Origin: Dictyostelium discoideum
Lineage: Eukaryota
DNA: 64,000 nt
Assembly (NCBI GenBank): GCA_000004695.1
Contig: CM000154.2
Coordinates: 384,001 to 448,000, forward strand
Direction of reading: 5' to 3'
Position numbers and translations under genes: made by a program. The notes beneath the pieces were generated by a model that was not told where the DNA came from, made no database searches, and saw only the letters and a program-made list of their open reading frames with translations. Numbering within the stretch: position 1 is the stretch's first letter; every line of letters begins with the position of its first letter. Positions 4,563 through 48,159 of this stretch are shown here, in pieces.

Positions 4563-7500
4563 TTAAATTCTACCATCTAATCTATCTTTCATCTTTTTAT
4601 AAGATTTATGTTCTTGTTGTTCAGATTGAAGTTCAGACATGATTTGTTTTCTCTTCTTTTCATTTTCTTTTCTTTCTTCAGTTGCTTTTTTGAATTTCTC
4701 AGCTTGAATGAATTGATTATCTTTAACGATTTCTCTTAAGGCACCTTTAGTTTCTTTTTTAATTAAAGCCTTCATTTTGGCAGTATGATTTCTTTCAGCA
4801 TCAGGATCTTTGTTAAAGAAAGAGAATACTTGATTGAAACGTGGATTGAATTGACGTAATGTTTGAGGTTTACTTGTTAATAGAATCAATGGTTTTCTCT
4901 TATTGATAATTTCTTTATTAATTGAATCAATCAATTGTTTTAAAGAATTTATTTTTTCAATCAATTTCAAATTCATTGTATTTGTATCTAATTTATTTAA
5001 TAAATTTAAAATATTTGTAAATAAACTTGGCAATGATTCATTAAATTGTGATTCTGAATAAAATCTAATATATTTTTCAAGGAACGAAATTAAATAATTT
5101 AAAATATTAATTCTTAATTCATCATTAATTTCTAAATTTGATTTTGATAAATTTGAAAATTCCAATTGAGTTGGTTCAATCTTTTTAATAACATTAATTT
5201 GATTTGAAAGTTTTAAATAATTTAATGGTAATAAAATTGTTGGTATTAAAATATTTGTTGAAATTGATGCCCATTGTGAATTAATATTTGATGGGGTAGT
5301 GGTAGTAGTGGCAGTAGTGGTTTTTGAATTTTTTGAATTTTTTGGTTTAGTAGTGGTGGTGGTAGTAGTTTGAATTGTTGGTGGATTATGATTTATAAAA
5401 GTTGATAATAAACTAATTAAAAGTGATGAAATTTCTGGTGAATATCTTTTTGAAGGTGATAAATAAAAGAATAATAAATTCATAGTGAAAAGTGAAGAGA
5501 TGATATCATTAGCATTTCTAATTGGACAATGGGAGAGGAAGAAATTCAATGCTTCAATTGTTGGTGTTACAACTGGATGTTGGAAATCAGAAGTTGGGAA
5601 AACATTACCAATCAATTTAATAACTAATAACTCTTGTTGATTTGGCCAATAATTTAATTTACTTTGAATTTCCAATTTCTTACAAATACGTTTATAACAT
5701 GAATTAATTAAATCCTTTGATGTTATACCAGATACAATTGGTACATCTTGAGAAATTTCAAAAATATATTTCGATAAAACATCCAATTCAATCCAATCAA
5801 TAGGATTTGATGATTCATCTTGGTCATCCTCTTTAATTGGTTTTGCAATATTAATGAATCTTTGATATAAAATTGGTAAATAATCTTTCATTTTATCCTT
5901 ATTTTGTGGTTTAATTGAAACATGATTACAAACCCCAATACGTGTTAAAATGGTTTCTTTCTCTTCTGATGTTCTATTTAATAACCATTCATCTAATTCT
6001 TCAATTGATTTTGGTGTATCAAAGGTAAATGGAATTGTTTCATTAACTTCTTCTTTTGATTTTTTATTTGTTTTTAATTTTTTAGTTGATTTTTCTTCTT
6101 CCTCCTCCTCGTCGTCTTCTTGACCTGATAAAATTTCATCATCTTTTAAATCTAAATCAGAATCCTCTTCATCACCTTCTTCACCTTCTTCATCTTCATC
6201 ACTTTTATCTTCATCATCAGTTTCTAATTCAGATGATTGTTCATTAGTTTGGTCATCTTCACTGTCAGAATTATCTTTATTATTATTATCATCGTCGGAA
6301 TCAATTTGTGGATTATAGAAAACTGTATCTACACCATTAATATTTAAAACTTCATTTTCATCATCTAATGAATCGGCTGTTAACATTTTTGGTTTATTAT
6401 CTTTTGCTTTTAATCTATCTAAAACTTTTCTTGGTAAATTTTTATCACTATCTTTAACATTATCATCAGCTTCCAATTCAACGTAATCACCACTTGCTCT
6501 CTCTAATCTTTCTTTTTCTTTTTGTTGTAATCTTTCCATCTCTTCTTTCATTTGTTCTTCTTTAGTTTTAGTTCTATCAGTTGCATGTGCCCTACTCTCA
6601 CCTTGTAATTCATATAATAATTCATCGAAATCGTCATGTGCTTCCTTTGGTTTTTTTGTTGAATCATTAGTTGAATTTGATGATGATGATGAAGCGAATT
6701 TTTGTTCATTTGATCTTTGTTCAGCTTGGAATTTTAAGAATGCATCATCTTGTAAATTATTATTATTGCTACTATTGCTATTATTACCATTTGTTAATAT
6801 TAATTCACCTCTAATTAAATTAAATTCTTCATCTAAATCTCTAGTTAATGCTTCTTTTTTTAATTTTTCTTTTGCTCTTTCAGCTTTACCAATCTTTGAT
6901 TTTTCAATAATTTCTTGATAAATCTCTTTCTTTGATTTATGTCTATCTTGTCTTTCACCATTACCATTACTATCATCATCACCACCACCAAATCTTTGTC
7001 TTTCACTTAAAAACTCTTTTCCAACTTCATCCAATTCATCATCTGATGCGACATAATCATCATTACCTTCAGATAATGACATTGAATTACTACCTAATGA
7101 ATTACCTAATGATTGACCCATATGTGTTAATTCTTCTTGATCATTATCATTTAAATTATATAAATTTTTATTTCTCTATTTTAAAATAAAAATAAAAATA
7201 AAAAAGAAATTTATTAGTAATAATATTTTTTTCTTATATATATATATTAAATAAATAAATATTTACCAATTTTTCTCTTTGAAAACGTGCTAACATTTTA
7301 TCTTCTTCAGACATTGAAGCATCATTTTCACCAATACGAGCATCAATGAATTTATTTGATTTATTCATTTGATTCATTTCAACTAAAATTGTTTTTTTAC
7401 GTTTTTCAATTGCATTATATCTTGATTGACCTAAATCACCTGATGCACCTTTAACTTGTCTATTTAAAACTACATGTTTTGTTTTATTAACCTTTCTATC

Positions 7501-25583: not shown

Positions 25584-25654
25584 TGCGTATGCTGGGAATC
25601 GAACCCAGTTCGCATCCGTGGCAGGGATGCATCATACCACTAGACCACATACGC
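25584..25654 (-). tRNA. tRNA-Gly (anticodon GCC)
   Basis: Reverse complement GCGTATGTGGTCTAGTGGTATGATGCATCCCTGCCACGGATGCGAACTGGGTTCGATTCCCAGCATACGCA folds as a cloverleaf. 7-bp acceptor stem GCGTATG/CATACGC. Anticodon stem CATCC/GGATG with loop CTGCCAC (GCC). T-arm GGGTTCGATTCCC. Confidence 0.85.
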
Positions 25655-38253: not shown

Positions 38254-39245
38254 TTATTTTTTTAATGATAATTTCTTTTCAATTTCTTTAATTACTGAGA
38301 GAGCACAATCAGTGATTCTACTACCAGGACCAAAGATTGCAACTACACCATGTTGATAAAGGAAATCATAATCTTGAGGTGGAATAACACCACCACAAAT
38401 TACAGAGATATGAGAGGCATCCAATTTCTTTAATTCATCGATTAACTCTGGTACAAGTGTTTTATGACCAGCGGCTAAAGAGCTAACACCAACAACGTGG
38501 ACATCACTTTCAACGGCACTTTTAGCGACTTCTTTAGCGGTGGAAAAGAGTGGAGATATATCGACATCGAAACCCAAATCAGAGAAGCCAGAAGCAACCA
38601 CTTTAGCACCACGATCGTGGCCGTCTTGACCCATTTTGGCAACTAAAATTCTTGGTGGACGACCTTGTTCTTTTGTGAATTTTTTAACGGCATCAATGAC
38701 GGCATCGATTTCATTAGTTTTGCCATAGGCTGATTTGTAAGCACCACTAGCCAAAGAATGAGTTGGAACATAACGACCATAAACAACCTCCAAAGCATCA
38801 GAGATTTCACCAACGGTACAACGAGCACGAGCAGCATTGATTGACAATTCCAAGAGATTACCTTTACCAGTTTTAGCGGCTTCGGTGAGGGCTTCAAGAC
38901 ATTTCTTTGCCTCTTCAGAGTTACGAGTTGCCTTGATTCTCTTGAGACGTTCGATTTGAGCCTCTTTAACTTTTTTATTATCGATTGAAAGAATATCTAA
39001 TTTCTCCTCCTCTTTTAATTTATATTTATTTACACCAACGATAGTTTCGATGCCACTATCGATACGAGCTTGACGACTTGCAGCCGATTCTTCGATTCTA
39101 CGTTTTGGTAAACCCTCGGTGACAGCTTTAGCCATACCACCCATTTTTTCAACTTCTTCAATGATCTCCAAAGCTATGTAATCACGAAAATACCCAAAAA
39201 TATTACCAAACTTTGTCCATAAACCTAAAAAACAGATATTTTTTT
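38254..39245 (-). pseudogene. Methylmalonyl-CoA mutase, C-terminal half only (linker plus cobalamin-binding domain). Lone 3' exon with intact acceptor; N-terminal catalytic (beta/alpha)8 domain absent from the window neighbourhood.
   Basis: ...[69 protein letters not shown]...[76 protein letters not shown]...[30 protein letters not shown] is collinear with human MUT residues about 425-750, including the B12-binding DxHxxG motif. The frame opens only at ttttttAG (plus about 39246) with no in-frame ATG before it. No coding for the approx. 420-aa N-terminal domain exists on this strand anywhere between 39.2 and 44.3 kb. Confidence 0.65.
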
Positions 39246-40019
39246 TTTATCTATTTTTAAAAAAAGATATACCTTTTTTTTTTAATTAAAAAAAATGTTT
39301 AGAAAAAAAAAAAAAAAAAAATTAAAAACCGAGATAATTTCTGTGATTCTCGAAAAAAATAATAAAAATAATAATACAAAAAGAAACTTCATGGAAAAAA
39401 AAGAAAAAAGAAAAAAGAAAATCTAATATCCTACACACGACAGTTCATAATTATAGTGCAATTGCAAAATAAAAAAATCGGTTAGGGGTGGATAATTAAA
39501 TAATCAAAAAAAAAAACAATTTTTAAAAAAAAAAATAAAAAAATTAAAAATTCGTGTGTGTAACTGACAACAAATCATTCTTAAAAAAAAAATAAAAAAT
39601 AAAAAATATCATTGCATGTGAATATGATAACTAAAAAAAAAAAACTTCCTTAATTAAAAATAAAAAAAAAACTCAAAGTCATTTAATTAATAATCATCTC
39701 AAATATAAACAAAATTTTAGTACTAAAATTATTATTATTATTATTTTTATTATAATAATTATAATAATAAAAAAAAAAAAAAAAAAAATTTTCATATTAT
39801 TTTATTTATATCTTTTATTTATTTTTATCTTTTTATTTTTATTATTAATTTTATAATTTATTTTCATTTCTTTTTTTTTTAGTTGATATATATTTTTTTA
39901 TTATTCATTTATGTCTACGGCTCACAAAAAAAAAAATTAAAAATAAAAAAAAAAATTAAAAATTAAAAAAAAAAAAAAAAAAAAAAATTAAAATAATTTT
40001 TTTTTTTTAATTTTTTATT

Positions 40020-40440
40020 TTAATTATTGACTCTTCTACTTTCTCTTTTGTTACTAACAGATGAAGTTTCGTTTGAAAATCTTTTGGTAAAATCAGCATC
40101 AGATTGTAATTGATTAGCTCTTTTTTTACCCGTTTTGTTTTTGTTTGATTGAGTTGTGATTCCACCATTATTGGAAGTTGTTGCAGCTTCATGTGTTGAT
40201 CTAACTTCGGTGGTAGAGTGCTCGATTGCTTTTTCAACTAGGTCATCTGTTGATTTTCTTTTGGTTATTTCGATATCCCTTTGCAATTTATTTTACTTGT
40301 CTCCGCCTCTCTAAATTCAACATTTACTTTGTACTTCAAATCATTTTTATCAATAGTAACTTCGTTAAATAATACACCAAATTCATCACTTTGATTGAAT
40401 TCAACATCTTTAAATTCCAAAAAAGCGACATCTTCGGGTG
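40020..40440 (-). CDS. Small hypothetical acidic/basic protein (about 153 aa if two homopolymer indels are corrected)
   Basis: The ATG frame (MSLFW...) switches at T6 (about 40423) into EDVAFLEFKDVEFNQSDEFGVLFNEVTIDKNDLKYKVNVEFREAETSK, then at A4 (about 40275) into ...QRDIEITKRKSTDDLVEKAIEHSTTEVRSTHEAATTSNNGGITTQSNKNKTGKKRANQLQSDADFTKRFSNETSSVSNKRESRRVNN*. Adding one T and one A gives a single clean ORF. GC content higher than the flanks. Family not recognised. Confidence 0.3.
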
Positions 40441-40605
40441 GAAAAATAAAAAAATAAAAAAAAAAAATACTTTTTAATTTTTTTAATTTTTTTTTTATAT
40501 TTTTTTTTTTAATTTTTTTTTTTTATTTTATTTTTTAAAGTTTCGAACAATTATATATAAAAAAAAAGTAAAAGATATCCCTTCGGTCAATTAAATAATA
40601 GTAAT

Positions 40606-40606
<1 letters not shown>

Positions 40607-40649
<43 letters not shown>

Positions 40650-40651
40650 TA

Positions 40652-40744
<93 letters not shown>
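40607..40744. repeat. (AAT)n microsatellite, about 46 units, intergenic
   Basis: Directly observed perfect trinucleotide array with one internal variant (aacaataatataataat). Confidence 0.95.
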
Positions 40745-40745
<1 letters not shown>

Positions 40746-41132
40746 CTTAAATATACAAAAAAAAAATAAAAAAATAAAAAAATAAAAAAAATAAAAAAAA
40801 AAAAATAGAATGAAATGAAATAAAATAAAATAAAAAAAAGAAATACAGAATTTCTTTAAAGAAACTTATTTCGAAATTGTTTAAACAATCATACAGTTTA
40901 AAATTAAATAAATTGTTTTAAACCACCACTTTTTTTGAACACATGAAAATAAATAAGAAATAAAAATAAAAAGATAAAAAAAGATTTTTTTTTTTTTTTT
41001 ATTTTATAATTATTCTTGTCATCAGTATTGTTACTGTAATTAATCCCATGAGTTTTTTTTTATTATTTTTAATTCTTTTATATTTGAGATGATTATTAAT
41101 TAAATGACTTTGAGTTTTTTTTTTATTTTTCT

Positions 41133-41311
41133 ATGCCCAAAATTACCATATTAATTTCGGCAGCCATATTAATTTCAGCCTAAAATAGTTGGTCTGTGCA
41201 TGCCAAAATTAATATGGCTGCTGAAATTAATGTGGTAATTCTAGCAGACATAAGTCCCATGCCAAAATTACCATATTAATTTCAGCAGCCATATTAATTT
41301 TGGCATGGGAC
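41133..41311. repeat. MITE-like composite inverted/direct repeat element, about 180 bp (thug-S-like candidate)
   Basis: R1 cccaaaattaccatattaatttcggcagccatattaatttcagc (41138-41179). R2 gccaaaattaatatggctgctgaaattaatgtggtaattc (41201-41240) is the near-perfect reverse complement of R1. R3 gccaaaattaccatattaatttcagcagccatattaattttggc (41264-41305) is a direct copy of R1 whose own ends are palindromic (gccaaaatta/taattttggc). Outer ends atgcccaaaatt...aattttggcatgggac form short terminal inverted repeats. GC content well above the flanking poly-A/T DNA. Confidence 0.35.
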
Positions 41312-41798
41312 AATTGATGAAAAAAAAAAAAAAAAAAACAGAACTTCAAAAATATTTAAATCAAAGCAAAAAATAAATAATAATAAAAAAAAAAATTTGT
41401 TATAAAAATATGATTAAATTTCAAAAAATAATGATAATAAAAAAAAAATTAAAGAGAAACTCATATATAAAACAGATTCAAATTATCGAATAAACTTTTT
41501 TTTAAATTAAAAATAAAAATAAACATAATCTTTTATTTGCTTAAAAAAATAATATAAAAAAAAAAAAAAAAATAATTATTAAATAAAAAAAAGAATGGTT
41601 TTTTAAATGTCTTTATTTTCACTTTTTTATTTTTTTTATTTTATTATTTATTTTATTTTATTTTATTTTATTATTTATTTTATTATTTAATTTATTATTT
41701 ATTTTATTTCATTCCATTTCATTTCATTTTAATTTATTTTTATTTCTTTTTTTAAAATTTGATTCAAGTGAATTATCTTTGGAATGATTGAAGTCCTG

Positions 41799-45536: not shown

Positions 45537-45636
45537 NNNNNNNNNNNNNNNNNNNNNNNNNNNNNNNNNNNNNNNNNNNNNNNNNNNNNNNNNNNNNNNN
45601 NNNNNNNNNNNNNNNNNNNNNNNNNNNNNNNNNNNN
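45537..45636. other. Assembly gap (100 N)
   Basis: Run of n characters 45537-45636, about 215 bp upstream of the UBIAD1 start codon. Confidence 1.
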
Positions 45637-48077: not shown

Positions 48078-48159
48078 TGTAAGCTAAGGGATTCGAACCC
48101 TTGTATCAATGATATTGCAGCCTTAATGCAACCCCTTAGACCAGCTCGGGCAAGCTTAC
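48078..48159 (-). tRNA. tRNA-Leu (anticodon AAG), class II with long variable arm
   Basis: Reverse complement GTAAGCTTGCCCGAGCTGGTCTAAGGGGTTGCATTAAGGCTGCAATATCATTGATACAAGGGTTCGAATCCCTTAGCTTACA. Acceptor GTAAGCT/AGCTTAC. Anticodon stem TTGCA/TGCAA with loop TTAAGGC (AAG). 12-nt variable arm. T-arm AAGGGTTCGAATCCCTT. Confidence 0.85.

Follow-up and report, generated by a model that had tools for sequence, protein, structure and literature searches.

What is the cluster of repeated modules at positions 41133-41312 of a 64,000-nt stretch of Dictyostelium discoideum DNA (the window)? The initial annotation had proposed either a self-contained, MITE-like transposon of about 180 bp or a structured RNA. 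Repeat analysis of the window resolved the region into three copies of an ~40-nt module, R1, R2, and R3 (Table 1), in the direct/inverted/direct order originally described. R1 and R3 are direct repeats of 39 nt with 97% identity. Across the 64 kb, the 30-nt core of the module was found at R1, R2, and R3 only (up to 3 mismatches), with 0 occurrences expected from shuffled sequences (n = 100); the three modules are beyond chance. R1 and R2 had been taken for perfect inverted partners separated by 21 nt, but their 35-nt arms are 94% complementary and have 30 nt between them. The two mismatches of this stem become G-U pairs in + strand RNA. R2 and R3 form the stronger pair, with 48-nt arms (94% complementary) and a loop of 13 nt. 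R3 has palindromic ends, as had been noticed. Its outer arm (41295-41312) forms a true transposon terminus, which moves the right boundary from the 41311 given at first to 41312.

The whole unit was then evaluated by RNA folding, as had been recommended. It gave -81.6 kcal/mol on the + strand (z = -10.4) and -85.8 kcal/mol on the - strand (z = -11.1), and the R2/R3 stem was chosen in the minimum-energy fold of both strands. For the R3/R2 hairpin (118 nt), the z-scores were -13.4 (-) and -12.5 (+), and none of 200 shuffled sequences was equally stable.

When the unit was scanned against Rfam, mir-7131 (RF03716) was the only family at its gathering score, and the sub-threshold matches were miRNA families and one very weak snoRNA. 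The RF03716 threshold of 74 bits was exceeded on both strands with the full model (1-84) covered, and the model loop, GACUUAUGUC, was matched exactly on the - strand. The same family was found above threshold in two of the other copies described below (L053 and L054), at the left (ORF-proximal) end only, with 94-99 bits. The ORF-sense strand always scored slightly higher than the opposite strand. The mir-7131 family reportedly goes back to Avesson et al. 2012.

Table 1. Features of the module cluster and of the surrounding transposon copy (window positions)
Feature	Position	Strand	Remarks
One-ended, decayed thug-S DNA transposon copy, 1657 bp	39656-41312	- (by ORF)	BLASTN against other copies
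Subterminal inverted repeat arm, truncated end	39656-39728		
Subterminal inverted repeat arm, adjoining the module cluster	41058-41130		73 nt, 89% complementary to 39656-39728
R1	41137-41175	+	Direct copy of R3; carries the CGG variant
R2	41206-41240	-	Inverted relative to R1 and R3
R3	41262-41300	+	Core of the terminal module
Whole terminal module including palindromic arms	41253-41312		
Transposon terminus, 18-bp terminal inverted repeat TGTCCCATGCCAAAATTA	41295-41312	-	Same 18-mer at both outer ends of L053 and L054
mir-7131-type precursor hairpin, R3 + R2	41209-41297 (match 41209-41295)	-	RF03716, 93.8 bits
mir-7131-type precursor hairpin, other strand	41211-41297	+	RF03716, 93.1 bits
miRNA_can_D3-3p AUUAAUUUCGGCAGCCAUAUU	41150-41170	+	Within R1; one exact match in the window
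miRNA_can_D3-5p UAUGGCUGCUGAAAUUAAUGUGG	41213-41235	+	Within R2; one exact match in the window
Exon 1, thug-S ORF model	41250-41292	-	GCA_054883475.1 gene model; encodes MAAEINMVILAWDL-
Remaining exons, thug-S ORF	40297-40407, 40020-40246	-	Same GCA_054883475.1 model

Furthermore, the cluster contains both RNAs of the published candidate miRNA_can_D3, for which Meier 2016 gave the sequences (Table 2 of that paper) and the Northern probe DM227 (PMC4894637). The probe also matches exactly in the window. S4 Table of the same paper lists six D3 positions in all, among them chr5 425150..425170 and chr5 425213..425235 on the plus strand, and 2783137 and 3248649 on chr2 (PMC4894637). The chr5 coordinates equal the window coordinates plus 384000 (6 x 64000), which places the window at D. 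discoideum AX4 chr5:384001-448000. The chr2 pair sums to 6,031,786, the value expected from the known inverted duplication of AX4 chromosome 2, which leaves five distinct loci.

We examined how the two RNAs lie on the R1/R2 stem. In the register 41141:41240, the RNA at 41150-41170 pairs with 41211-41231, and the 3' overhangs are 2 nt (opposite the 5' end of the RNA at 41213-41235) and 4 nt. With the published D3 RNAs placed by arithmetic, both overhangs fall in the 0-4 nt range that miRBase uses for high-confidence miRNAs. Along the + strand, the two RNAs come in the reverse of the order implied by Meier's 5p and 3p labels. RF03716 models the R2/R3 hairpin, with a loop that reads in the - strand sense, whereas the D3 pair belongs to the R1/R2 hairpin on the + strand. 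The locus is therefore host to two precursors that overlap but are kept separate in the databases. These results indicate that the structured-RNA proposal was well founded: with RF03716 above threshold and the D3 RNAs matched exactly, the cluster is a microRNA precursor locus. The observation is real, but the feature is not new: this small-RNA locus has been on record as mir-7131 / miRNA_can_D3.

The D3 small RNAs were reported to be lower in the rbdB- mutant and higher in the agnA- mutant, and the reads in AX2, rbdB-, and agnA- were 68, 3.3, and 186 for D3-3p and 47, 26, and 370 for D3-5p, which was described as RbdB dependence (Meier 2016, PMC4894637). They were also described as multicopy and located within thug-S (PMC4894637; PMC6161686). 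In principle, D3 reads can map to more than one place. Of the four thug-S loci that we compared, two of them from another strain's assembly, only the window locus had the exact D3-5p 23-mer, and the putative assignment of the reads to this locus is based on this uniqueness; their origin from the + strand is likewise putative. On both strands, the cluster is preceded by a T-run and a G, a pattern like the pri-miRNA start motif of Liao 2018; it was given no weight, since T-runs abound throughout this genome.

The suggestion that the cluster belongs to thug-S was also correct: Meier 2016 placed the D3 RNAs in this element, and the name that we use for the unit rests on that statement (PMC4894637). 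In the D. discoideum genome, "Thug elements" account for 0.1% of the sequence (PMC5633606). Three comparison copies (L053, L054, and L055) were obtained from newer D. discoideum assemblies as the loci of relatives of the thug-S ORF, and a second assembly, GCA_054883475.1, carries an identical cluster at the same locus. thug-S itself is said to have been defined by Glockner et al. 2001. BLASTN, which had been proposed as a check on copy number, termini, and target-site duplications, showed homology to all three copies from 41318 down to 39653-39662 with 83-96% identity, and it stopped there in all three (41318-40773 against L053, 92%; 40299-39662 against L053, 96%; 40649-39659 against L054, 87%). 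Complete copies were found at L053:4061-6040 (1980 bp, with the 6-bp duplication ATTAAC/ATTAAC) and L054:4981-6544 (1564 bp, CATATT/CATATT), both bounded by perfect 18-bp terminal inverted repeats, TGTCCCATGCCAAAATTA...TAATTTTGGCATGGGACA. The two sizes differ because the internal AT-rich parts vary in length among copies. The unit is a DNA transposon of ~1.6-2 kb that ends in TG...CA and duplicates 6 bp of its target site, and not the element of ~180 bp for which thug-S had been taken.

In L055 (GCA_054859355.1), end fragments of thug-S at 4950-5060 and 7180-7416 are rearranged and lie beside an LTR-retrotransposon ORF with RT and integrase domains, which suggests a nested transposon cluster. 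A tRNA gene is located at L053:3061-3134 (-), ~930 bp from the L053 copy of thug-S; Dictyostelium retrotransposons target tRNA genes. When a 19-mer of the module was searched for by exact match in metagenome, prokaryotic-genome, and viral collections, 47 loci came up; by BLAST, none of them shared more than 26 nt with the element, and they were set aside as chance matches.

The copy in the window has a single intact end. Its 18-bp terminus was found with 0 mismatches and at one outer position only, and the flank beside 41312 is ATTGAT (41313-41318). At the opposite end, the arm at 39656-39728 stays identical to the other one as far as "gactttgagttttttttttattttt"; divergence sets in exactly where the module cluster should start, and the ~150-bp terminal module cluster is absent beyond it. 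The left edge of the cluster at 41133 is internal to the transposon, with homology running on to 39656, and the DNA to the left of 41134, at first regarded as pure poly-A/T, is transposon sequence common to the other copies. As for the short terminal inverted repeats noted earlier, the one on the 41301 side is part of the genuine terminus, while the one at 41134 is internal transposon DNA. With one end lost and its ORF frameshifted, the window copy is presumably immobile. A long (AAT)n microsatellite occupies 40600-40745, within "intron 1" of this copy.

We also inspected the sequence beyond the truncated end. There, the ORF at 38254-39171 (-) matches the D. discoideum AX4 gene DDB_G0287563 with 100% identity. 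This gene (up to ~39441), which adjoins the truncated end, comprises the C-terminal third of methylmalonyl-CoA mutase only (296-326 aa), with the end of the mutase domain and the B12-binding domain, and its next best database match has only 65% identity. Because a mutase fragment stands beside a transposon lacking its end, one deletion may have taken away the thug-S end together with the gene's 5' portion. Elsewhere in the window, tRNA-Gly(GCC) is encoded at 25584-25654 (-) and tRNA-Leu(AAG) at 48078-48159 (-), a run of 100 N at 45537-45636 marks an assembly gap in the reference, and further genes are typical of Dictyostelium, e.g., those with FNIP repeats.

The left ends of the copies were aligned with the reverse-complemented right ends to determine how the two ends differ. 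Two differences only were observed: the terminal module has its 24-bp core in opposite orientations at the two ends, and a 28-nt insertion completes the third module at the left end. At the left (ORF-proximal) end, the modules stand in inverted order and form the long hairpin; at the right end, they stand in direct order and form no hairpin. The hairpin is therefore present at one end only because the core is flipped there relative to the neighboring module. Each module ends in CCCATGCCAAAATTA, the terminal motif, or in a variant, and from this recurrence the modules are presumed to be a subterminal array of putative transposase-binding sites. Programmed inversion of the 24-bp core was considered and rejected, since three of three left ends have one orientation and three of three right ends the other, so that the arrangement looks fixed and not switching.

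Taken together, the cluster is best read as the ORF-proximal terminal region of a thug-S copy, at AX4 chr5:425,133-425,312, whose hairpins are probably diced into small RNAs (probability roughly 0.88). A transcript across the left end, from either strand, would fold co-transcriptionally into a long hairpin (range over folds, -55 to -73 kcal/mol, z = -9 to -13). In the ORF-sense (-) transcript, R3/R2 (the mir-7131 precursor) would form first and would also be the most stable hairpin. In the + (antisense) transcript, R1/R2 (35 bp) would come first; it carries the D3 duplex with its 2-nt 3' overhang. The existence of two stems fits their being the first-formed hairpins of two opposite-strand transcripts. 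According to the literature, from which this step is taken, the Dicer-like DrnB with RbdB (microprocessor) would then dice the hairpins into RNAs of ~21-23 nt. The products would be perfectly complementary to thug-S RNA of the opposite strand and could restrain thug-S in cis and in trans. Given this complementarity, self-silencing of thug-S would be their simplest and most likely function.

The small RNAs may instead be siRNAs from a transposon hairpin, a by-product of read-through over inverted subterminal repeats with the transposon as the only target. We consider this possible, though the less probable reading. The 48-nt arms, at 94%, make the hairpin near-perfect, as miRNA precursors seldom are; folding and scoring are equally good for the two strands; the sequence at this locus is that of a transposon; and a thug-S transcript is, according to the literature, de-repressed in a DNMA knockout. 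Moreover, only D1 and D2 of the four candidates of Meier satisfied the strict high-confidence miRNA criteria applied by Liao 2018, which left D3 out and excluded thug-S loci from the pri-miRNA analyses (PMC6161686); the supplement of that paper makes no mention of mir-7131 or thug-S. The miRNA-like behavior reported by Meier 2016 (PMC4894637), namely the decrease in rbdB-, the increase in agnA-, the discrete species of 21-23 nt, and the partner strand, argues against it, as does the classification of the family as a miRNA in both miRBase and Rfam. The siRNA reading is set apart from the preferred one only by its name and by the question of host-gene targets, and the choice between "miRNA" and hairpin siRNA is unsettled.

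A further proposal concerns the window copy itself, which may have been retained, as an immobile one-ended remnant, to serve as a dedicated genomic source of the D3 pair. The G at 41232 gives the exact 23-nt D3-5p and is present in the window copy alone among the four thug-S loci. The G at 41159 (the CGG variant) is shared with L054 and L055. On the + strand alone, each of these residues replaces an R1/R2 mismatch by a G-U pair, which hints at selection for the antisense-strand hairpin. We regard such retention as unlikely. If it were true, D3 products could act in trans to silence those thug-S copies that are active, and a transposon fossil would have become a repressor locus.

Next to the small RNAs, the annotated thug-S gene has to be considered, since the cluster might be mainly protein-coding, with MAAEINMVILAWDLY as exon 1 of a small gene specific to Dictyostelium. 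The GCA_054883475.1 model predicts a 126-aa gene with its ATG inside the R3 hairpin arm and its splice donor GT in the hairpin loop. Models in AX4 (DDB_G0290953 and DDB_G0281529) and in two newer assemblies likewise begin at the hairpin-arm ATG. A protein search of 5.8 billion sequences returned five relatives, none outside D. discoideum, among them DDB_G0290953 (chr5), DDB_G0281529 (chr3), and DDB_G0271172 (chr2), on the chromosomes of the listed D3 loci. DDB_G0271172 (P0125) is numbered near DDB_G0271154_TE, a "thugS element," and our guess is that the two genes are neighbors. Four of the five relatives start with the same hairpin-encoded peptide. The proteins P0121-P0124, annotated in AX4 (DDB_G0290953 and DDB_G0281529) and in newer assemblies, begin with MAAEINMVILAWDLY, which is encoded by the microRNA hairpin arm. 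This peptide is, however, a translated repeat arm, and a Pfam search of the ORF detected no domain. The window copy is frameshifted relative to DDB_G0290953 (P0122), the frame breaking without the 50-nt "intron." The restriction of five members in 5.8 billion proteins to one species also counts against a mainly coding role, and the thug-S gene models may be ab initio annotation artefacts. We therefore judge such a role quite improbable. As the small ORF of the unit has no recognizable domain, thug-S is presumably non-autonomous. The gene models place exon 1 in the hairpin arm and R2 and R1 in intron 1, which explains why the small-RNA site was published as lying "in the intron of thug-S."

The initial annotation had also raised a switchable RNA, in which R2 would pair with either R1 or R3. 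Such an element might act in cis, for example on the expression or splicing of the thug-S ORF. The mutually exclusive stems are real, and both fold stably (R1/R2, -55.1 kcal/mol, and R2/R3, -70.3 kcal/mol, on the + strand; R2/R1, -52.5 kcal/mol, and R3/R2, -73.2 kcal/mol, on the - strand); the start codon and the first splice donor of the ORF also lie inside the R3/R2 hairpin. However, one stem is favored by a gap of 15-20 kcal/mol, neither a ligand-binding region nor a conserved unpaired one can be seen, the copies differ too little to show covariation, and the one family at its Rfam gathering score is a microRNA precursor. At the right end, the same modules in direct order form no hairpin, which fits drift of a repeat array better than a designed switch. 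Nothing suggests a regulated switch, and we consider this reading very unlikely.

A free-standing 180-bp MITE with the ends atgcccaaaatt / aattttggcat in AT-rich intergenic DNA is hardly credible, for although short inverted motifs do exist at 41134 and 41301 and the right boundary is a genuine transposon terminus, the homology with three copies crosses the left boundary at 92% and continues for ~1.5 kb, the complete units bearing terminal repeats and target-site duplications are 1564-1980 bp long with the ORF inside, and beside 41133 there is no duplication, so that the 180-bp unit is not flanked as a terminus at both edges.

The preferred reading, a thug-S end diced into small RNAs, can be compared with what is already known. 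mir-7131 (RF03716), judged by the Rfam model, differs from the window locus in nothing substantive; both it and miRNA_can_D3 share the sequence of the window locus, and for D3 the genomic position is the very same. As a discovery, the locus is therefore little new, with mir-7131 in Rfam and miRBase and the coordinate in the 2016 paper. As for thug-S, the unit seen here is likewise multicopy, confined to D. discoideum, and equipped with terminal inverted repeats and target-site duplications, whereas the window copy differs from a complete thug-S in that one end is missing and the ORF is frameshifted. What our analysis may add is the anatomy: the TG...CA termini, the 18-bp terminal inverted repeat, and the 6-bp target-site duplication; the restriction of the miRNA hairpin to one end by means of a flipped repeat core; and the start of the annotated thug-S "gene" inside a hairpin arm.

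MicroRNAs derived from transposons or MITEs are present in animals and plants, and human mir-548 is derived from Made1 elements. In these, as would be the case for thug-S, inverted repeats of a DNA transposon yield a transcribed hairpin that undergoes Dicer-type processing. The two differ in geometry: in a MITE-type miRNA, the two terminal inverted repeats of a miniature element pair with each other, whereas the thug-S hairpin is formed from subterminal repeats at one end. thug-S would offer, beyond plants and animals, a clean example of how the subterminal repeats of a transposon can become a Dicer substrate.
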